DNA from: Chloroflexota bacterium
GTDB taxonomy: Bacteria; Chloroflexota; UBA11872; UBA12225; JAJDUF01
Length of the DNA: 64,000 bases
NCBI GenBank assembly: GCA_034422515.1
Contig: DAOUJP010000025.1
Coordinates: forward strand, 221,692-285,691
Reading direction: 5' to 3'
The number at the start of each line of letters is the position of its first letter. The first letter of the stretch is position 1. A program made the position numbers and the translations under genes. This document shows, in pieces, positions 3,301 to 13,280 of this stretch. Below the pieces are notes generated by a model. The model was not told the origin of the DNA. It saw nothing but the letters and a program-made list of their open reading frames with translations, and searched no databases.

Positions 3301-3358
3301 GTAGGGGCGCAACATGTTGCACCCGTCCCCCCGTCGGGACGGGGGGACCATAGGGGGC
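3301..3358 (+). repeat. composite repeat: module F palindrome (gggcgcaacatgttgcaccc) + module B
   Basis: gtaggggcgcaacatgttgcacccgtccccccgtcgggacggggggaccatagggggcc. The same F+B arrangement is at 6038-6097 and, degenerate, at 7957-8014. Confidence 0.85.
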
Positions 3359-3423
3359 CGCCACCCCCGCTCGCCCCGCCGGCGTCACTCTTGCTATACT
3401 GGATGCCACAAAGGTTGTCAGCA

Positions 3424-6185: not shown

Positions 6186-7691
6186 CTAGGAAATAGAGCC
6201 GTGCTCCTTCAGCAGGCGATCCGCCTGCCGCTGCATCTCGGTCAGCAGTTCACGCACCCCCTTCGTGCCCTCGACCAGTTCCTTCCAGCCCTCGCTCCAC
6301 ATCTTGTTGATGTCGCCTTGCTTGACGATGAGCTTGGTGGGCGCGGAGGCCTTGGCCGAGGCGGAGTACACCTCGGCGTCCTCGTAGGCGTGCAGCACCT
6401 TGGGCGTCGCGTCCTTGAACACCGAGTACCGGCCACCGCCCAACAAGGCCATCTCGTGCTGTGCCCCTTCGCCGATGATGAACTTGTTGAACTCCCACGC
6501 GCCGTCCGGCTCCTTGGCCTGCGCGGTGATGTAGCTGGCGTTATTAGCCAGCGGCACTCGCCGCAAACCGGTTGGCCCTTTCGGCAAGAGCGTCATCTGC
6601 AAGTCGAACTGTTCCTCCTGCAGCAGCCGTTGGAACGTCCGCGTGTAGTACGAGCCGGTCACCAGGGAGGCGTTCTCGCCCCTGGCGAAGTTCCCGCCGG
6701 CCACCTGATGCTCCCGCACCAGGTCCACCGCGAACTCGATCGCCTCGACGAACTCCGGCGTGTCAATGGTCGCCTTCGTGAAGTTGTCGTCGAACCAGTC
6801 CGCGCCCCACGCCAGCAGGACGTTGAGAATCCAGCCGGTGCTACTGAACGGCAGGTTGAAGGCGTACTGCGTGATCTCGTCGCCCTCTCGCTTCACCAGC
6901 TTCTTCGACATCTCCAACAGCGTGTTCCAGTTCCACTCGCCGGCCTGCTCCAGATCGCGCGGGTTTTCGAGGCCCACCTCCTGGAGCTTGTTCCACTTGT
7001 ACCAGAACTCCTTGCCGTTCGTGAACCAGGCCAATCCGTAGGTCTTGCCCTCGAACTTCTCCACCGCCGCCGGCACGAAGTTGTCCACCCGGATGTTCTT
7101 CTCTTTGGCCAAGAAGGGATCGAGCGCCTGAACGATCCCCTGGTCCACGTACCCCCCGATGATCGTGTAGTGGCCGTAGAGGAAGTCGTAGTAGTCACCG
7201 GCAGCAAACGTCGCCACCGCCTTCTCGGCCGAAGCGCCAATGCCCAAGGCCGGGTCCCACACGATCCGATACTGCGGGTTCTGCTCCTCGAAATTGCGGA
7301 AAATCGTGTTCCAGGCGTCCTTCCAGTAGAGCTGGTTCACGTCTACGTGCAGATACCGAATGATCTTCTGCTGCGTCAGCTTCTCGACCACCTTCTCCAC
7401 TGGCTTCTCGACGGTGACGACCCGTTCCACCACCACCGGCTTCTCGACGATCTTCTCGACGATAACCGGCTTCTCCTTCTCGACCACAATAGTCTCGCCA
7501 GCGCTCCCGGCCGCACCCTTGGCCCCCGCCGCCCCGGTCGCGCCCCGCTCACCCGCCGGCCCAGCCGGTCCAGCCGGCCCCGCCGGCCCCTGGACGTAGC
7601 GCACTTCGATTTCACCGCAGGCCACAGCCAACAGCCCGGCCAGCGCGGCGCTGGCTCCTCCCAGGTACGTTCGCCGAGTTGCTTTGCTCAT
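6186..7691 (-). CDS. ABC transporter substrate-binding lipoprotein (extracellular solute-binding protein family 1, sugar-type) with collagen-like/VEKPV linker
   Basis: Start ATG 7691 with GGAGGGAG RBS. Tat/lipobox-like N-terminus TRRTYLGGASAALAGLLAVAC. The linker carries a GPAGPAGPAGPAG repeat and an (I/V)VEKPV repeat. The SBP core has WKD..N..F... motifs. No adjacent permeases, so it is an orphan SBP. Confidence 0.85.
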   Translation of the reverse strand: MSKATRRTYLGGASAALAGLLAVACGEIEVRYVQGPAGPAGPAGPAGERGATGAAGAKGAAGSAGETIVVEKEKPVIVEKIVEKPVVVERVVTVEKPVEKVVEKLTQQKIIRYLHVDVNQLYWKDAWNTIFRNFEEQNPQYRIVWDPALGIGASAEKAVATFAAGDYYDFLYGHYTIIGGYVDQGIVQALDPFLAKEKNIRVDNFVPAAVEKFEGKTYGLAWFTNGKEFWYKWNKLQEVGLENPRDLEQAGEWNWNTLLEMSKKLVKREGDEITQYAFNLPFSSTGWILNVLLAWGADWFDDNFTKATIDTPEFVEAIEFAVDLVREHQVAGGNFARGENASLVTGSYYTRTFQRLLQEEQFDLQMTLLPKGPTGLRRVPLANNASYITAQAKEPDGAWEFNKFIIGEGAQHEMALLGGGRYSVFKDATPKVLHAYEDAEVYSASAKASAPTKLIVKQGDINKMWSEGWKELVEGTKGVRELLTEMQRQADRLLKEHGSIS

Positions 7692-7804
7692 CTGCTCCCT
7701 CCCCTTCCGCAGCGCCCTCGACTGTGGCACCCCACCGCCGGCAACGGCACAATACCGCACCCGCGAACCAAGCGTCAAACGGTCTAGGGCGAGGCATCAC
7801 CCCC

Positions 7805-8014
7805 GGTAGGGGCGCGATTCATCGCGCCCTGGAATTCGTCATTCCGGCGGAAGCCGCAATCCCCCTCTCGCTTGTGGAGCGGCCCTCACCCCCGTAGGCG
7901 TGTCCCTTGTGGGCGCCCTCTCCTCCTGACTGGGGTAGGTACGGGTTAATCCGTAGTGGGCTACAGCATGTTGCGCCCGTCCCCCTGCGAAGCGGGGGTA
8001 CCATAGGTCCCCCC
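7805..8014 (+). repeat. mosaic repeat cluster: F' palindrome gggcgcgattcatcgcgccc (7808-7829), A (7838-7862), G (7928-7949), degenerate F+B (7957-8014)
   Basis: Same modules as elsewhere. The F'-A pair recurs inverted at 55421-55468. Confidence 0.8.
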
Positions 8015-8190
8015 ACCCTAGCCCTATTCCTCCACCACCAGGGCATGCCACTTCGCGTGTCCGAGGGTTCGGGCCAGAGCGACTCTTTGGAAAACTATAG
8101 CAATTCTGCTATAGTTACGATCCCATGGACTGAGCCGTAGAAACCCTGAATGCGACCGTAGACCGGGAGCTTGACGCGCTGCCGGCCGAC

Positions 8191-8451
8191 ATGCGTGCCC
8201 GTTTCGTGCGCCTCTGTGAACTGATCGCGGCCGTTGGGTTGGATCGTGTCGGTGCGCCGCACGTCAGGCACGTGACCGGCCCGCTGTGGGAAATGCGTCT
8301 GAGCGGCCGCGCCGGCATATCGCGTGCGTTGTACGTTGCCGTCCGCAGCAAACGAGTTGTGGTAGTGCGGGTCTTCATCAAGAAGACCCGCAAGACTCCC
8401 CGCCGGGAGGTGGACTTGGCGCTGCAGCGCGCTAGGGAGGTGTTGGCATGA
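8191..8451 (+). CDS. type II toxin, RelE/ParE superfamily, HigB/Gp49-like (likely N-terminally truncated or decaying; see finding)
   Basis: GPLWEMRLSGRAGISRALYVAVRSKRVVVVRVFIKKTRKTPRREVDLALQRAR matches the Gp49/HigB signature lwElR...g.aRvlY....LL..F.KKtqktP..eielA..R. The in-frame upstream codons (8134-8190) encode the conserved N-terminus but are cut off from ATG 8125 by a TGA at 8131. Confidence 0.6.
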   Translation: MRARFVRLCELIAAVGLDRVGAPHVRHVTGPLWEMRLSGRAGISRALYVAVRSKRVVVVRVFIKKTRKTPRREVDLALQRAREVLA

Positions 8452-8738
8452 GCAATGTACGTGACTTGCACGAGCAATGGAGCCGGGACCCGGACTACCG
8501 GGCCGCCTATGACGAACTTGGTCCAGAGTTTGCGCTGGCCCGCTTGTTGATCGAGGCGCGTACCGGCGCCGGGCTGACGCAAGCACAGCTTGCCGCCCGC
8601 ATGAAGACCACGCAGTCGGTCATCGCCCGACTGGAGAGCGGCCGCGTTCACCCATCCACCAAAACGCTGGAGAGGGTTGCACAGGCCACCGGCACCCGGC
8701 TCAAGATCAGCTTTGAGCCTATCGGGGCCGCAGCCTGA
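8448..8738 (+). CDS. HTH XRE-family antitoxin (HigA-like)
   Basis: GGGAGG RBS, ATGA overlap with the toxin, and helix-turn-helix LTQAQLAARMKTTQSVIARLESG. Confidence 0.8.
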   Translation: MSNVRDLHEQWSRDPDYRAAYDELGPEFALARLLIEARTGAGLTQAQLAARMKTTQSVIARLESGRVHPSTKTLERVAQATGTRLKISFEPIGAAA

Positions 8739-8783
8739 CCTCCTACCATCGCCCCTGGCTCCGTCATCCCCATCATCTCGCCC

Positions 8784-8889
8784 GTCATTCCCGCGCCCGC
8801 AGGAATCCATGTCCCCCTGCGTAGCGGGGGGACCATAGGGGGGCCAGTGGATGGAGACAAGCCCGTCATTCCGGCACAGGCCGGAATCC
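8784..8889 (+). repeat. composite repeat A (8784-8808) + B (8811-8845) + A (8865-8889)
   Basis: gtcattcccgcgcccgcaggaatccatgtccccctgcgtagcggggggaccataggggggcc ... gtcattccggcacaggccggaatcc. The A-B junction ggaatccatgtccccc is identical at 18674. Confidence 0.85.
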
Positions 8890-8925
8890 AGAGTCGACAG
8901 AATCCGCCATGGCTGCTGTGGGCAA

Positions 8926-8954
8926 TTGAATCGCCTATAGACCGCTGATATGGT
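8926..8954 (+). promoter_or_regulatory. candidate sigma-70-type promoter TTGAAT-N17-TATGGT upstream of the 9044 gene
   Basis: AT-rich stretch in a GC-rich genome with hexamers at correct spacing ~90 nt upstream of the ATG. Confidence 0.3.
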
Positions 8955-9043
8955 AGAGGCAAGGAAGAAGTTATAGACACACCGGATATTGCCCGGCTAG
9001 GCGCCCCAGCCTCGCGGCGCGTGGTCAGGAAACCGAGGACAGC

Positions 9044-10702
9044 ATGGACTTTGTTGTGGGTCTAGCTCTAGCCGTAGTCCTTTGGGCAGGCATCACCTTG
9101 ATCGTGGGCATCATCCCTATGATCCATCGGCATAGAACAACGAAGGGCCTGCAACAAACCGACAAGGATGTGCATAAGCTTCTGACACCTGACGAGACGA
9201 TCGTCTGTATCGCGCGACAGGGCAATATCTCCGGATGGAAAGATACCGTAGTCGCCACCAATAACCGCATTATCATCCATCGAGTTAAGTGGCGCTGGTG
9301 GGGGAAGGCCGTTTTCGAAGCTGTCGCGTGGGAAGATGTCCAGAATGCGACCATTGACGGATTGTTCAGTGTTGCACATTTTCGCCTGACCACAACTGGT
9401 GGTCGCAAGCTCCTGATCGGCAACCTAGTCAAGGAGCAGGCCCGGATGCTGTTAACCATCTGCCACGAGAGGATCAAGCAGGGCAAAGATGTCGAAATTG
9501 AGCGAGTTGACGAGGGGCAGGACACCATGCGCCTGGATCAGATCGCCAGGGATGTGCATGCGATCCTAGCACCCAACGAGACCATCACTTACATCGCACA
9601 CCAGAGCACGGGATTCCTCGGTGGGAAGGATGCCGTAGTTGTCACCAACAAACGCGTTATCATCTACCGGATCAAGGTGCATTGGTCCGGGGAGAATGAG
9701 TCTACTTTCGAAAGTGTTGCGTGGAAAGATGTCTGGGATGTGTCCATTCACGAGACATTCGGGACTGCCGATTTCCGCCTGACCACGACCAACGGTCGCA
9801 CACTCCAACTCGCTAACTTGGTCAAGGAACAGGCCCAGGCATTATTAGCCATCTGCAAGAGGAAGCGGCGGAAACCGCGGCGTTGGCAGGAGAAGATTGA
9901 GCGGATTGATGCGATGCAAGATACCACACGCATGGCCGAGATCGTCAAGAGTGTGTACCCGATCCTGAAACGCAACGAGACGATCATTTACGCTGCACAC
10001 CAGGCTAAGGGCGGGAACGGCGCTGTAATAGTCACTAACAGACGCATTATCATCTACCGGATCAAGATGCGTTGGTCCGGGGGACATGAGCCTACCTTCG
10101 AAGATACCGTGTGGAAAGATGTCCAGGACGTGTCCATTGACGAGACATTCGGGATTACCGATTTCCGCCTGACCACGACCGACGGCCGCACGCTCCAACT
10201 CGCTAACTCGGTCAAGGAACAGGCCCAGGAATTACTGGCCATCTGCAAAGAGCGGACTGAAGCAGGGCACTATACCACGCTCCTATCTCAAGTCGCTGAG
10301 GCAGCACGGCAGGTTTCTGTCTCGGCAGGCGTTGATTTGGAGACAATGACGCCCAGTGAGTTTGAGAAGGTAGTCGCTCGCCTGTATGAGCAAATGGGAT
10401 TTAATGTGGACCTTACCCAACATAGTCACGACGGTGGCGTGGACCTGTATGCGCGCAGAACGAATGAAGCCGGCGTTGAGGGGGTTGCCGTCCAATGCAA
10501 ACACTACAGCGGCACTGTCGGCGTGGCAGAGGCCAGAGCGCTCTTTGGCGTCGTAAGCGCCGATCAGCGCCTAGCGCGGGGCGTACTCGTCACCAGTGGC
10601 TCGTTCTCCGCCGGTTGCCGGTTGTTTGTCGAGGGTAAGCGCATTGATCTTATTGACAGAGAGCGCCTGCGCGAGTTGCTAGATCGCTATGGGGTGCAAT
10701 AA
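9044..10702 (+). CDS. membrane-anchored protein with 3 tandem bacterial PH-like (bPH) repeats and C-terminal Mrr-type restriction endonuclease catalytic domain (PD-(D/E)xK)
   Basis: N-terminal TM helix (VVGLALAVVLWAGITLIVGIIPMI). Three ~130-aa repeats each with ...ETI.YIA.Q......KD.VV.TN.RIIIYRIK..W.........W.DV.......F....FRLTTT.GR.L.L.NLVKEQA..LL.IC... The C-terminus FEKVVARLYEQMGFNVDLTQHSHDGGVDLYA...VAVQCKHYSGTVGVAEARALFGVV...GVLVTSGSFSAGCRLFVEGKRIDLIDRERLRELL matches the Mrr_cat D-x-(Q/E)xK nuclease fold. GC is ~50% against ~68% background. Confidence 0.8.
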   Translation: MDFVVGLALAVVLWAGITLIVGIIPMIHRHRTTKGLQQTDKDVHKLLTPDETIVCIARQGNISGWKDTVVATNNRIIIHRVKWRWWGKAVFEAVAWEDVQNATIDGLFSVAHFRLTTTGGRKLLIGNLVKEQARMLLTICHERIKQGKDVEIERVDEGQDTMRLDQIARDVHAILAPNETITYIAHQSTGFLGGKDAVVVTNKRVIIYRIKVHWSGENESTFESVAWKDVWDVSIHETFGTADFRLTTTNGRTLQLANLVKEQAQALLAICKRKRRKPRRWQEKIERIDAMQDTTRMAEIVKSVYPILKRNETIIYAAHQAKGGNGAVIVTNRRIIIYRIKMRWSGGHEPTFEDTVWKDVQDVSIDETFGITDFRLTTTDGRTLQLANSVKEQAQELLAICKERTEAGHYTTLLSQVAEAARQVSVSAGVDLETMTPSEFEKVVARLYEQMGFNVDLTQHSHDGGVDLYARRTNEAGVEGVAVQCKHYSGTVGVAEARALFGVVSADQRLARGVLVTSGSFSAGCRLFVEGKRIDLIDRERLRELLDRYGVQ

Positions 10703-10750
10703 TCTGTGGGCTGGCCCCTACCCTAGCCTCCGCGCGGACTCCCCCTTCCC

Positions 10751-10797
10751 TACCAGGGAAGGGGCCGGGGGTTAGGTTCTCATCCCACCACTAACCA
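10751..10797 (+). repeat. module C palindrome repeat copy (with gcgcggactcccc leader)
   Basis: cccccttccctaccagggaaggggccgggggttaggttc. Confidence 0.8.
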
Positions 10798-12008
10798 CCG
10801 CCCGCCGATACCCCCAAGGTGTAGGGCGAGCGGCTGAGGCTGGGCGCCGGGAACAGGCGCGTTAGCAGCACCTCGGCGTCCTCGAACGGATCGGCCCCGT
10901 ACTGCTGCACGAACTCCGCGTGCAGCTGCCCCTCCAGCCCCGTCGGCGCGCGCAACGGCAGGTCGAGCCGGCGGTTCCCTTGCCGCGACGATTCGCGGAT
11001 CGCTATCAGTAGCTCCAAGTCGGTGCGCGCGGAAGTCCCGTAGACTGCCGGCCGGCCCTCGACAATCGAGCGATGCAGACCGAGCCAGGTATCCGCGCGA
11101 GCAACGTCGTCCGCGCTGGGCAGCGCATACTGCGAGTAGGGATTCTCCCAGGTCAGCGGTGGCTCAGTCGCCAGTTCGGCGTGCGTAATCGTTTCGCTGC
11201 CGTCCGCGCTAGCGCCCAGCACCGTCTCGATAGGAATCCGGCGACCACGCCGCGACCGGCTATCCTCCCACAACACCACCTCGTTGCCGACAATCGCCCC
11301 CTGCGTGCCAGCGACTTCCCACTCGTTGCCGCGGGTGGTACCAATCGGCCACTGGTAGACGCCTAGCTCACCATCGGCAAACTCAATGACGCCCAGCTCC
11401 CAGGTGCGCTGCGTGCGCGTGTGCCCATCCACCTCGACGAACGGCCGGACCGTGACGGGCGCACTTGTACCCCAGACGCCCACCGGCCGGCTGGTGATGA
11501 AGCGACGCATGGCGGCCATCCCGTGATAGCTGCCGGAGGTGTACCAGAAATGGACTTGGGTCACTTGTCCGAGTAGCCCCTGCTCGACCACCAGTCGCTT
11601 GAGCCGTTCGTGCGGCCACCGCCAGACGTTCTCGGAGACTTCGAGCAAGACGTTGTGTCGTTCGGCGGATGCCAGCATGTGATCGGCCATCGCCAACGTG
11701 GTTGCGATGGGCGTTTCCGTGATGATATGAGCGCCGCGCGCCGCGGCAACGGCCGTGACCAAGTGGTGTGCGTCCGGTGGCACCACCACGCCCACGACCT
11801 GCGGACGCACCGCGTCGAGCAGCGCCACCGGATGCGCGAATGTGGGCACGCCATAGGTCTCGGCAGCCCACTGCCGGCGTTCCTCCCGCGCGTCGCACAC
11901 GCCCACCAGCCGGAAGTGCTGGCGCAGCGTGCTGACTGTCGCCAAGTGCGTCGCACCGCGATTGCCGGCCCCGATAATGGCAGCAGTGAGCACAGGTCCC
12001 TCTGTCAC
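10791..12008 (-). CDS. Gfo/Idh/MocA family oxidoreductase
   Basis: Start GTG 12008 with GGAGGAGG RBS. Rossmann motif AAIIGAGNRG followed by a C-terminal alpha/beta domain. Confidence 0.85.
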   Translation of the reverse strand: MTEGPVLTAAIIGAGNRGATHLATVSTLRQHFRLVGVCDAREERRQWAAETYGVPTFAHPVALLDAVRPQVVGVVVPPDAHHLVTAVAAARGAHIITETPIATTLAMADHMLASAERHNVLLEVSENVWRWPHERLKRLVVEQGLLGQVTQVHFWYTSGSYHGMAAMRRFITSRPVGVWGTSAPVTVRPFVEVDGHTRTQRTWELGVIEFADGELGVYQWPIGTTRGNEWEVAGTQGAIVGNEVVLWEDSRSRRGRRIPIETVLGASADGSETITHAELATEPPLTWENPYSQYALPSADDVARADTWLGLHRSIVEGRPAVYGTSARTDLELLIAIRESSRQGNRRLDLPLRAPTGLEGQLHAEFVQQYGADPFEDAEVLLTRLFPAPSLSRSPYTLGVSAGGG

Positions 12009-12094
12009 GGCCCCTCCTCCCCAGCGTTCGTGCTGGCGGACATCACGGTACAACAGCCGGCCGGCCCATGTCACGCCGGTCGCCCTAGCCCGCG

Positions 12095-13198
12095 CTACAC
12101 CGTCGGCAGCGGGGCCAGGCTGACCAGCGGTACCCACTGCGTCGCGCCGCCGGCGGCCGCCACGCGGGCCGCCGGCCCGCGCCACTCACTCGGAAAGAGA
12201 TACGCCTCGGTCGTCTCGACAACCTGCACGACCGTTCCCGCCTGCGGGCCGCCGAGGATCACGGCGTCACTGCCCGGCGCCAGCACCGGCGGACCGAGGC
12301 GCGCGGCCAACGCCTCGGCCGCCGGGCCGGTCAGCAGCAGCTCCGGCACGCTGCTCCGGTCTGCACCGGCCATCCCGACTGTCTTACCCGCCAAGGGCCG
12401 CAGCGCCTCCAGGACCGCCGCAGGGAGTGTCGGCGCGAGGTGTCCGTAGAGCAGCAGCGTCGGCACCACGGGTGCCGCTGCCGCCTCCAGGACGACGCTG
12501 TGTGGATCGGTGCCGGGCACGAGATCCGTACTGCCCGCCGCGACGATGCCCGCAGCACGATACCTGGCCGCCGCCGCCAGGAGGTCGGCCGTCGCCGCGC
12601 CGCACCGGAGCACCACGGCCGCCTCCCAAGTATCCCAGTCTTCGGCCCCAACGGGCGGGGCTGCTTCTTCCCAGAGCACCAGTGGTCCCCAGACGGACGC
12701 GCCGTAGCTCCACGCGCTGGCGATAGCCAGGCCCGGCGCCGTGAGCACCACCGCCGGCGCCGGCGCCTCCTCCAAGGCTGTGACCGTTCCATACACCAGC
12801 GCCGGCAGCGGTACGGTGTCACCGTCCACGTGCGGATGGATGACGACGGTGCCGGTGTCCTGCGAAACGAACGCCACGCGGCCGGCGTGCGGCGCCGTCA
12901 CGGTCCGCTGCTGCAAGCCCAAGAGACCGGCTCGCTCGGCCAAAACGGTTCCCGCCGCGACATCCTGCTCGGCCTCGACGGTCAGGTACTCGGCCACCTG
13001 TGCCGGTCCGACACCCAACTCCGCGCTGAGGGAGAGCGCCACCAGCGCCGCTGCCGCTGGGACGTGCGCCAGGGGAGTGGCCGGTTCCACCGGCTGTCCG
13101 ACGGCCACCGCGATCTCCGCTCCCGGCGGCAAGACCACGCGGCGCGTCAGCGGTCCGACTTCCCAGGCGGCACCCGGCGGCTGTCCGTTCATAAGCAT
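12095..13198 (-). CDS. hypothetical Ala/Val-rich protein
   Basis: Long ORF in the coding-like frame between two confident genes. No recognisable motif. Start ATG 13198 or 13267 is unresolved. Confidence 0.4.
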   Translation of the reverse strand: MLMNGQPPGAAWEVGPLTRRVVLPPGAEIAVAVGQPVEPATPLAHVPAAAALVALSLSAELGVGPAQVAEYLTVEAEQDVAAGTVLAERAGLLGLQQRTVTAPHAGRVAFVSQDTGTVVIHPHVDGDTVPLPALVYGTVTALEEAPAPAVVLTAPGLAIASAWSYGASVWGPLVLWEEAAPPVGAEDWDTWEAAVVLRCGAATADLLAAAARYRAAGIVAAGSTDLVPGTDPHSVVLEAAAAPVVPTLLLYGHLAPTLPAAVLEALRPLAGKTVGMAGADRSSVPELLLTGPAAEALAARLGPPVLAPGSDAVILGGPQAGTVVQVVETTEAYLFPSEWRGPAARVAAAGGATQWVPLVSLAPLPTV

Positions 13199-13280
13199 CG
13201 TGCCCGCGAGCGAAGCGTCCTTGGCTCTACCAACATTAACATGCCGGTGGCAGCATCCCCGTAGCATTCACCCCGGCCCG

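Follow-up and report, generated by a model that had tools for sequence, protein, structure and literature searches.

The bPH-Mrr Gene and the Architecture of Its Product

A stretch of 64,000 nt from the genome of a Chloroflexota bacterium (GenBank assembly GCA_034422515.1, contig DAOUJP010000025.1, positions 221,692 to 285,691), which is called the window in the following, was analyzed with respect to one gene, named bPH-Mrr here. The gene encodes a protein that combines an N-terminal transmembrane (TM) helix, three domains of the bacterial PH family bPH_3, and a C-terminal nuclease domain of the Mrr_cat family. A preliminary description, made from the sequence alone, had proposed this open reading frame (ORF) and this architecture. 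The ORF was recovered exactly as described, and the TM helix, the three bPH domains, and the Mrr_cat domain were all confirmed by Pfam searches, hydropathy analysis, and AlphaFold2 (AF2) modeling. The gene lies on a strain-variable segment of the genome, and its features make a role in defense plausible. The coordinates of all features are summarized in Table 1.

Table 1. Features of the bPH-Mrr locus. Positions are those of the window; residues are those of the bPH-Mrr protein.
Feature	Position	Strand	Remarks
HigB-like toxin and HTH antitoxin gene pair	8191..8738	+	neighbor outside the variable segment; G+C content 0.648
Presence/absence segment	8763..10808		2,046 bp; repeat hairpins, leader, bPH-Mrr gene, 3' hairpin
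Three REP-like hairpins	8784..8888	+	8784-8807, 8811-8830, 8865-8888; between higA and leader; genome-wide repeat families
Conserved upstream leader	8908..9043	+	about 136 nt; promoter-like site and 5' untranslated region of about 80-90 nt
Candidate sigma-70-like promoter	8926..8954	+	TTGAAT-N17-TATGGT; TG two bases 5' of the -10 hexamer
Shine-Dalgarno-like motif	9035..9039	+	GAGGA, 4 nt ahead of the ATG
bPH-Mrr coding sequence	9044..10702	+	552 aa: TM anchor, three bPH_3 domains, Mrr_cat nuclease; Pfam and AF2
N-terminal membrane helix	9047..9121	+	about residues 2-26; predicted N-out, C-in
bPH_3 unit 1	9143..9493	+	residues 34-150; basic, pI 9.9 over residues 47-148
bPH_3 unit 2	9524..9892	+	residues 161-283; basic patch KRKRRKPRR at its end; pI 9.8 over residues 161-290
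bPH_3 unit 3	9923..10273	+	residues 294-410; identity to unit 2: 65% (aa), 85% (nt)
Mrr_cat PD-(D/E)xK nuclease domain	10337..10681	+	residues 432-546; E441, D463, D467, Q484, K486
9-bp G+C-rich hairpin	10743..10763		CCCTTCCCT ACC AGGGAAGGG; separates the convergent genes for bPH-Mrr and the oxidoreductase; no T-run

The AF2 model of the full-length protein was built from 49 sequences and had a mean predicted local distance difference test score (pLDDT) of 82.3 and a predicted template modeling score (pTM) of 0.41. It contained a long N-terminal helix, three PH folds, and a nuclease core with the order alpha-beta-beta-beta-alpha-beta; the confidence was low in the linkers at residues 22-31, 287-293, and 409-427. 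A sequence search of the PDB chains with the bPH-Mrr protein yielded zero matches at E values up to 0.01.

The hydrophobic stretch at the N-terminus comprises residues 1-19 or more (mean Kyte-Doolittle value of 2.14 over residues 1-19), and the helix in the AF2 model spans residues 2-46. Lysine and arginine are absent ahead of the helix, while five K/R and three H residues are present in residues 27-46. The positive-inside rule was applied to this charge distribution, and, thus, the bulk of the protein is expected in the cytoplasm. The protein is predicted to be a single-pass inner-membrane protein with a very short N-terminus outside and the remainder inside the cell. The N-terminal helix was also found in the related proteins P0004, P0005, P0007, P0014, and P0016 and in P0002 after correction of its start (related proteins are designated P, contigs and loci L).

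Comparison with the orthologous parts of relatives gave ratios of nonsynonymous to synonymous substitution rates (dN/dS) of 0.19-0.41, i.e., the gene is under purifying selection, and because of these values it was regarded as functional. They are relevant for an alternative without any defense function, which is judged to be unlikely, namely that bPH-Mrr is a lineage-specific membrane-associated protein of DNA processing or stress, or else a decaying chimera that arose by recombination of a TM-bPH paralog with a TM-Mrr gene. The dN/dS of 0.60 between units 2 and 3, indicating relaxed constraint, would fit this alternative. In contrast, the ORF of 552 codons is intact, the catalytic residues are all present, and the dN/dS against the relatives is well below 1.

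The Nuclease Domain and Known Defense Nucleases

Mrr_cat (PF04471) matched over its complete profile (positions 1-115 of 115) with an E value of 2.8e-30 and 105.2 bits, compared to a cutoff of 21. The D-x-QxK core that had been read from the sequence is indeed present as DGGVD...VQCKHY, together with the glutamate listed in Table 1. In the 92 nearest long Mrr_cat proteins, the columns of these catalytic residues show either no variation or a conservation of at least 90%. In the AF2 model the core consists of helix 437-450, the strands 454-457, 468-474, and 477-486, helix 494-506, and strand 510-517, with a pLDDT above 90 over most of the domain. A Foldseek search of the PDB retrieved the nuclease domains of MspJI, AspBHI, EndoMS, and AF1548. 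The C-terminus thus scores well above the Pfam cutoff and has both the core fold and the catalytic residues of a PD-(D/E)xK nuclease, in agreement with the preliminary description, and the domain is predicted to be active as a nuclease.

The best PADLOC matches were all nuclease modules of defense systems, i.e., PDC-S02, mREase_IV, and the C-terminus of ZorD. The match to PDC-S02 was the best one (E value 1.5e-17) and comprised the nuclease domain and about 40 upstream residues. However, only positions 145-306 of the 334 profile positions were matched (199-362 of 390 in a second model), the N-terminal half of the profile had no counterpart, and PDC-S02 is itself an unvalidated candidate. ZorD was matched with its C-terminus at an E value of 8e-13. 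It is an SNF2 helicase with an Mrr-like nuclease that acts at the membrane through ZorAB, and nuclease action at the membrane is a concept that bPH-Mrr might share with Zorya (PMC12904381). In contrast to ZorD, of which only the last approximately 140 profile positions matched, the bPH-Mrr protein contains no helicase and is anchored in cis by its own TM helix. ZorA, ZorB, or ZorC genes were not found near bPH-Mrr, the neighbors being a toxin-antitoxin (TA) gene pair and metabolic genes.

The mREase_IV models of PADLOC matched at E values of 5e-14 and 4e-13. Type IV enzymes have Mrr_cat as their catalytic domain, and the protein could be a type IV-like restriction enzyme that depends on DNA modification or another DNA feature. 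The basic bPH domains would then replace the usual winged-helix domain Mrr_N in binding DNA, self DNA would lack the respective feature, and the membrane anchoring would be secondary. Like E. coli Mrr, the bPH-Mrr protein has an Mrr_cat domain with the E...D...QxK residues and is encoded by a solitary gene without an adjacent methyltransferase gene. Further features in favor are the basic nature of bPH1 and bPH2, with KRKRRKPRR ending bPH2, and the similarity of the nuclease fold to the modification-dependent enzymes MspJI and AspBHI. In contrast to E. coli Mrr, the protein has a TM helix and a bPH stalk, and the PADLOC profiles matched the nuclease domain only. Mrr_N, SRA, or another modified-DNA reader was not among the Pfam matches at E values up to 1, and the N-terminal 430 residues are made up of the TM helix and the bPH domains. 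Moreover, DNA binding by bPH domains is undocumented (PMC2817789), and the recurrent TM anchor of the nearest relatives is left unexplained. A type IV-like enzyme is, thus, regarded as improbable.

The bPH_3 Array

The family bPH_3 (PF14470) matched in three stretches of the protein (E value 5.4e-26, 91.3 bits versus a cutoff of 23). On the DNA level, the three units form a repeat with a period of 390-393 nt. Unit 1 is about 48-49% identical in protein sequence to units 2 and 3, which are much more similar to one another (Table 1). In the AF2 model, each unit starts with a helix, which is followed by seven strands and a second, C-terminal helix. In the Foldseek search of the PDB, the top matches were tandem-PH proteins (FACT subunits, Rtt106, and BBS5), and the bacterial PH structure 3dcx was also retrieved (TMt 0.65). 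A common bPH_3-SHOCT protein of Chloroflexota with about 200 aa shares 37-47% identity with the units. The bPH_3-SHOCT proteins are encoded by standalone genes in metabolic contexts and are the nearest outgroup of the bPH head.

This fold of seven strands between two helices is shared with the bacterial PH proteins PHb1 and PHb2 as well as with the bPH_3-SHOCT proteins. The predicted intracellular position next to the membrane is also the one that has been proposed for bacterial PH domains in membrane proteins (PMC2817789). In contrast, a triple tandem array in one chain that is fused to a nuclease is a difference from these proteins. The crystal structures of PHb1 and PHb2 revealed that the solved bacterial PH domains form rings via beta-edge extension, and that they do not have the long beta1-beta2 hairpin that binds lipid (Xu et al. 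2010, PMC2817789). Oligomerization or protein docking is better documented for them than lipid sensing, and their physiological functions were described as not understood (Xu et al. 2010, PMC2817789). With its basic units 1 and 2 and the KRKRRKPRR patch, the array of bPH-Mrr may also help in DNA binding. A literature search on bPH domains together with Mrr or restriction endonucleases, on PF14470, and on PH domains in anti-phage defense retrieved no relevant publication, but the coverage was incomplete and the absence is weak evidence.

The preliminary description had assigned a sensory role to the array, i.e., the bPH domains would sense membrane perturbation or phage entry, and the nuclease would then be released or activated. 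In an abortive infection of this kind, host and phage DNA would be degraded and the infected cell would die. Sensor-like N-terminal modules fused to an Mrr_cat effector would be in line with this proposal, and the same layout occurs in the Avs, bNACHT, and Lamassu-Mrr families. In addition, YozO, a protein of the bPH_1 family (PF08000), is induced by envelope stress (PMC2817789). However, a protease site or another mechanism of release was not evident in the protein, and the absence of the lipid-binding hairpin from bacterial PH domains also argues against lipid sensing. Abortive infection is seen as unlikely, and two further groups of data that bear on it are described below.

Candidate Promoter and Conserved Leader

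The bPH-Mrr gene is preceded by a conserved leader. The promoter-like site that had been proposed for the gene, TTGAAT-N17-TATGGT, is present, and it is kept in position at five related loci. At a sixth locus, L002, the aligned stretch begins 3' of the -35 hexamer, and, thus, only the -10 region could be compared. The site agrees with the consensus at 8 of 12 positions, which is below the listing threshold of the promoter scanner. The Shine-Dalgarno-like motif is conserved as GAGGAC in the leader alignment, with GGGGAC in L002 and GAGAAC in L007.

The leader could be aligned in the window, in L029 (7502-7637), and in the paralog loci L005, L006, and L007 (about 7865-8000), while in L002 only its 3' part was alignable (about 3307-3393). 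It precedes genes of different families, and the TM-bPH head is all that their proteins have in common, the tails being different. Judged by this alignment, the bPH gene family carries its own expression signals. The conservation of promoter and leader is a further point against a decaying chimera or a function outside of defense.

Most homologues of the leader contain an out-of-frame upstream ATGGAC, at which the window has ATAGAC. A structured regulatory RNA in the leader was also considered and was rejected, as the RNAalifold consensus was weak and covariation was essentially absent (+0.36). No Rfam family was found anywhere in the window.

Presence and Absence of the bPH-Mrr Segment

The exact sequence of the HigA-like protein encoded upstream of bPH-Mrr was used for a look-up in metagenomes, and the contig L013 (ERZ23495404, 671 bp) was found. 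It is 99.5% identical to positions 8396-8762 of the window, continues with 112 bp of an unrelated, repeat-like spacer, and is then 92.7% identical to positions 10809-11000, which represent the 3' end of the convergent gene for a GFO/IDH/MocA oxidoreductase. The region 8763-10808 is, thus, missing between its flanks. Because L013 joins the same higA almost directly to the same oxidoreductase gene, this region was identified as a presence/absence segment. A second contig, L014, agrees with the filled configuration through position 8904. The view of bPH-Mrr as an accessory gene was, thus, verified by an empty site. The segment varies between strains and represents a self-contained cassette that consists of one gene together with its candidate promoter and leader.

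The preliminary description had placed the gene next to a HigB/HigA-like TA pair, and this pair does adjoin. It is, however, not part of the nuclease unit. A joint module of TA pair and nuclease is contradicted by L013, which retains higA in the absence of the nuclease gene, and by the relatives of bPH-Mrr, none of which has a TA neighbor. The adjacent TA pair had been a point in favor of abortive infection, and the missing linkage withdraws it.

The identities of the two L013 flanks are unequal, 99.5% on the higA side versus 92.7% on the oxidoreductase side. The difference points to a recombination mosaic, or else to the TA pair having spread recently. In addition, the last few codons of the oxidoreductase gene are altered by the indel. 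The flanking oxidoreductase was used for a metagenome scan for additional empty and filled sites, but almost only relatives with at most 44% identity and one partial match of 54% were obtained, and the scan was uninformative.

A 14-nt direct repeat, CCCCYACCCTAGCC, at positions 8010 and 10715 was considered as a target-site duplication that brackets the TA pair and the nuclease gene. It was rejected because further copies of the motif are located at 2111 and 15845, and because the indel is actually bounded by 8763 and 10808.

Relatives and Modular Evolution

A word-indexed search of 5.8 billion proteins yielded 13 matches, and an exhaustive HMMER search over 1.84 billion representative proteins yielded 12,787 matches, nearly all of them to the nuclease domain only. 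The combination of three bPH domains with Mrr_cat was a singleton among these 1.84 billion proteins. Relatives that share the bPH domains are few and are confined to one uncultured Chloroflexota clade. A scan of the GTDB species retrieved two loci only, both in metagenome-assembled genomes (MAGs) of Chloroflexota.

The relatives differ in their domain composition. P0002 consists of a TM helix, two bPH units, a coiled coil, and Mrr_cat, whereby its true start at position 3394 of L002 restores the TM helix. P0008, P0010, and P0017 are composed of TM helix, coiled coil, and Mrr_cat. The paralogs P0004, P0005, P0007, and P0009 do not contain a nuclease, but a TM helix, a bPH domain, a zinc ribbon, a second TM helix, and extracellular tails. 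One syntenic slot, which is flanked by an RraA-like or BNR gene on one side and by a GFO_IDH_MocA gene on the other, harbors the relatives with Mrr. At this slot, related MAGs have TM-bPH-coiled coil-Mrr, bPH-coiled coil-Mrr, coiled coil-Mrr, or an Mrr stub. Such a rapid turnover of modules at one slot is the behavior that would be expected of conflict genes. The nuclease-free paralogs are found at a separate slot, after a Peptidase_S58 gene. Synteny of the flanks with the window was considered and rejected, as the flanks of both slots share no homologous genes with the window.

L029 represents a third context. It is 82% identical on the nucleotide level only to positions 8908-9473 of the window, and its flanks are unrelated. 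At 7638-8853 it encodes P0014 (157 aa), a homologue that is cut after a single bPH unit by an insertion sequence (IS) element (DUF4096 and DDE_Tnp_1). P0014 is the closest relative of the 5' part of bPH-Mrr, and its bPH unit resembles a hybrid of unit 1 and unit 2/3. The L029 contig has a 1x long-read coverage, and sequencing errors are possible.

These data also bear on the possibility of a function outside of defense. Relatives located between metabolic genes at conserved slots, degraded relatives (the stub in L008, the IS-cut homologue in L029, and P0017), and a bPH head that is shared with non-nuclease paralogs and has a bPH-SHOCT protein from metabolic contexts as nearest outgroup would be compatible with it. 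However, the presence/absence polymorphism and the domain shuffling are more in keeping with conflict genes than with housekeeping genes. P0017 (296 aa) has two TM helices, a coiled coil, and Mrr_cat, but DGGVG instead of DGGVD and RCQ instead of QCK, and it is probably an inactivated nuclease.

A membrane anchor is frequent among the relatives of the nuclease domain. A TM helix was predicted in 45 of the 160 retrieved proteins, nearly all of which contain Mrr_cat, and in seven of the nine close nuclease-domain relatives that were inspected (P0002, P0008, P0010, P0015, and P0017-P0021). Among the 92 nearest long Mrr_cat proteins, 29 to 31 matched SNF2/helicase families, and only five carried bPH_3. 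The closest nuclease domains outside of the family belong to the minimal TM-Mrr_cat proteins P0018, P0019, and P0021, with 53-59% identity. They consist of an acidic N-tail, one TM helix, a K/R-rich stretch, a linker, and Mrr_cat, and the order of acidic tail, TM helix, and basic stretch is the same as in the bPH-Mrr protein. In contrast to the latter, they are only 180-230 aa long, have no bPH domain and a catalytic triad with ExK instead of QxK, and are uncharacterized. They do not contain a sensor either, which is another point against the abortive infection proposal. A PspA/IM30-like coiled coil in P0002, i.e., a membrane-stress module, had seemed to favor it. This match was rejected as evidence, as it had 33.5 bits and was, thus, just below the cutoff of 33.9, and it may be due to coiled-coil composition.

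The genomic context of P0019 (230 aa, 59% nuclease identity) is that of a mobile element. The gene is located within the region 7397-8693 of L031, on a contig of 4.26 Mb (ERZ26167216) whose name suffix _c suggests that it is circular. It starts 17 nt after a co-oriented gene for a CI-like S24 repressor (phrog_4, E value 1.6e-35). The divergent module that it faces comprises a Cro-like and an excisionase-type gene as well as genes for a DNA methyltransferase and for replication/HNH proteins, and HicB genes and an IS1595 element are located downstream. This position is typical of superinfection-exclusion genes of prophages, and P0019 is, thus, a candidate for a prophage-encoded exclusion nuclease. 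P0103, a distant relative with a zinc ribbon, a weak bPH match, and Mrr_cat, has a second Mrr_cat protein, a MazE-like gene, SSB, and HTH_36 as its neighbors. The neighborhoods of homologs had been suggested as a test for an association with TA or defense genes. The contexts of P0019 and P0103 are prophage-like and mobile/defense-like, respectively; most relatives are located among metabolic genes and not in recognizable defense islands.

All three genomes with the TM-bPH-zinc-ribbon paralogs encode an additional Mrr_cat protein, fused to an N6_N4 DNA methyltransferase, at about 5 kb upstream of these paralogs (L005 723-2330, L006 1459-2844, and L007 1223-2929).

Comparison with SNIPE and Proposed Mode of Action

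The system that resembles bPH-Mrr in its overall plan is SNIPE, which consists of a TM helix with an N-out orientation, a cytoplasmic DUF4041 domain, and a GIY-YIG nuclease (Saxton et al., 10.1101/2025.11.03.685801). In E. coli, SNIPE cuts the DNA of phage lambda during injection, and deletion of its TM helix is toxic through the nuclease (10.1101/2025.11.03.685801). SNIPE homologues have variable N-terminal adapters, including PspB-like, DivIVA, and PH domains, the latter being predicted in some of them (10.1101/2025.11.03.685801). A review groups SNIPE together with Zorya and Kiwa under "membrane localization" (PMC12904381).

Both bPH-Mrr and SNIPE are single genes. The layout predicted for the bPH-Mrr protein, with a short N-terminus outside, a single-pass anchor, a middle module in the cytoplasm that has a basic surface, and a DNase at the C-terminus, is also that of SNIPE. 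Variable N-terminal adapters and the proposed sparing of self DNA by membrane sequestration are further similarities. However, the two proteins are not homologous. Pfam searches at E values up to 1 detected neither DUF4041 nor GIY-YIG in the bPH-Mrr protein, its nuclease belongs to the PD-(D/E)xK type, its middle part consists of three bPH_3 domains, and its host is a member of the Chloroflexota and not a proteobacterium. The partners of SNIPE are ManYZ and the tape-measure protein. The bPH-Mrr protein is proposed to be a functional analogue of SNIPE, not a homologue or a member of this family. The preliminary description had set the architecture apart from those of established defense systems. 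This holds insofar as no PADLOC model extends beyond the nuclease domain, but membrane-anchored Mrr_cat proteins are common, and SNIPE had already been described. The concept of a membrane-localized nuclease with a variable N-terminal adapter has, thus, been published with SNIPE, while the Mrr_cat effector and the triple bPH_3 array are different.

The favored interpretation is that bPH-Mrr encodes a membrane-tethered nuclease that cuts incoming DNA, and it is put forward tentatively, with a chance that is estimated to be somewhat short of even. By means of the anchor and the stalk, the nuclease would be kept close to the membrane on its cytoplasmic side and away from the nucleoid. The nuclease would, thereby, mainly meet DNA that crosses the membrane during phage injection or conjugation, and would cut it. 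Self and non-self would be distinguished by location, as was shown for SNIPE in E. coli, and membrane sequestration would be the safety mechanism for the DNA of the host. A spacer function and a platform function in oligomerization or docking, but not lipid sensing, are proposed for the bPH array, and its basic surfaces may help to bind DNA. A flexible linker would connect the bPH stalk with the Mrr-type DNase.

Several results weigh against this interpretation. One representative of PDC-S02, the best PADLOC match, did not protect E. coli B against T4, T5, and T7 (10.1101/2024.09.26.614923). The bPH-Mrr family is tiny and restricted to one uncultured clade, and a scan of viral contigs with the family alignment did not retrieve any relative. 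P0003, P0006, and P0015 combine bPH, coiled coil, and Mrr_cat in the absence of a TM helix. The TM-bPH head is also present in nuclease-free paralogs and, thus, is not specific for defense. Apart from the TA pair, the neighborhood of bPH-Mrr is metabolic within about 7 kb on either side, and most relatives are likewise found between metabolic genes, with no recognized defense system adjacent. Finally, at a pTM of 0.41, the AF2 model is uninformative about the packing between the domains.

A more far-reaching proposal, which is held to be doubtful, would be that the strategy of SNIPE evolved independently in this Chloroflexota clade from unrelated parts, i.e., from a PD-(D/E)xK nuclease on a tandem bPH stalk. 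Beneath the membrane, the stalk would form a ring-like oligomeric platform that docks onto the DNA-entry machinery of phages. The leader, the TM helix, and the bPH head would represent an exchangeable cassette with various tails, such as the Mrr nuclease, an OB-fold, or extracellular domains.

If bPH-Mrr indeed encodes a nuclease that acts at the site of DNA entry, defense by location would be a convergent solution and not a peculiarity of one family. A non-specific nuclease would be made safe by tethering it where foreign DNA enters, and a second, convergent class of injection-site nucleases would exist. It would also be a first testable function for bacterial PH domains and especially for bPH_3 (PF14470), a family on which no paper was found. 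In addition, the membrane-anchored Mrr_cat proteins would represent a large, unannotated pool of candidate defense genes. If this is not the case, the locus is still a clean example of a presence/absence polymorphism that involves one gene, and it also exemplifies how rapidly domains are shuffled in an uncultured lineage.

Further Features of the Window

The TA pair upstream of the variable segment consists of a Gp49/HigB-like gene at 8191-8451 (PF05973, E value 3.4e-19) and an HTH_3 gene at 8448-8738 (E value 1.1e-12). The toxin gene comes first, the antitoxin gene second, and the two ORFs overlap by 4 nt (8448-8451), which is the layout of HigBA-type type II TA pairs. The G+C content of the pair is host-like (0.648), in contrast to that of the nuclease gene (0.550), and 305 bp of repeat hairpins are located between them.

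The bPH-Mrr gene has a G+C content of 0.550 and 0.65 at third codon positions (GC3), compared to 0.665 for the rest of the window and GC3 values of 0.79-0.87 for the neighboring genes. The gene is, thus, below the background, as had been claimed, but the values of about 50% and about 68% that had been given for gene and background are not accurate, and the difference does not prove import. The members of the family have G+C contents of 0.51-0.575 in backgrounds of 0.65-0.67, including the nuclease-free paralogs at a conserved slot in three genomes. The low G+C content, thus, characterizes the family as such and does not show that bPH-Mrr was imported recently. Judged by base composition, it is a persistent anomaly of the family that is not explained by a single recent transfer.

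The hairpin cluster between higA and the leader has a fold energy of -61.7 kcal/mol (z -3.05). For its families, 9 and 8 copies were counted in the window of 64 kb versus 0 expected, and they are also present in the Chloroflexota loci L003, L005, L008, L009, and L029. These shared repeats assign the genome of the window to the Chloroflexota lineage. Hairpin repeats around bPH-Mrr do exist, therefore, but they are dispersed over the genome and cannot serve as the markers of an islet for which they had been taken. At least two families of short, G+C-rich, intergenic hairpin repeats can be distinguished, with the consensus sequences GTCATTCCnGC....GCnGGAATC and GTCCCCCTGCGnAGCGGGGG. The motif of the rejected direct repeat described above is a third one that accompanies the hairpin repeats; mosaic clusters are frequent, and Rfam matches were not obtained. 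Repeat sites in the window are located at 518, 4941, 5845, 7838, 7979, 8784, 8811, 8865, 13364, 18652, 18679, 23585, 24568, 24744, 27742, 36979, and 62899, and further ones are found in L003, L005, L008-L012, and L029. The hairpin repeats behave like repetitive extragenic palindromic (REP) elements or like elements of the type of miniature inverted-repeat transposable elements (MITEs).

Immediately upstream of the TA pair, a protein of 530 aa is encoded at 6186-7778 on the minus strand. It has a signal-anchor-like N-terminus, collagen-like GPAGPAG repeats, and a run of (V/I)EKP-type repeats, and no Pfam match at E values up to 1e-5. On the other side of bPH-Mrr, a protein of 390 aa without a Pfam match is encoded at 12095-13267 on the minus strand. 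The longest ORF of the oxidoreductase gene (10791-12185, minus strand) overlaps with this upstream ORF by about 90 nt. The true start of the oxidoreductase gene is probably located downstream of 12185, since the Pfam match begins only at residue 67.

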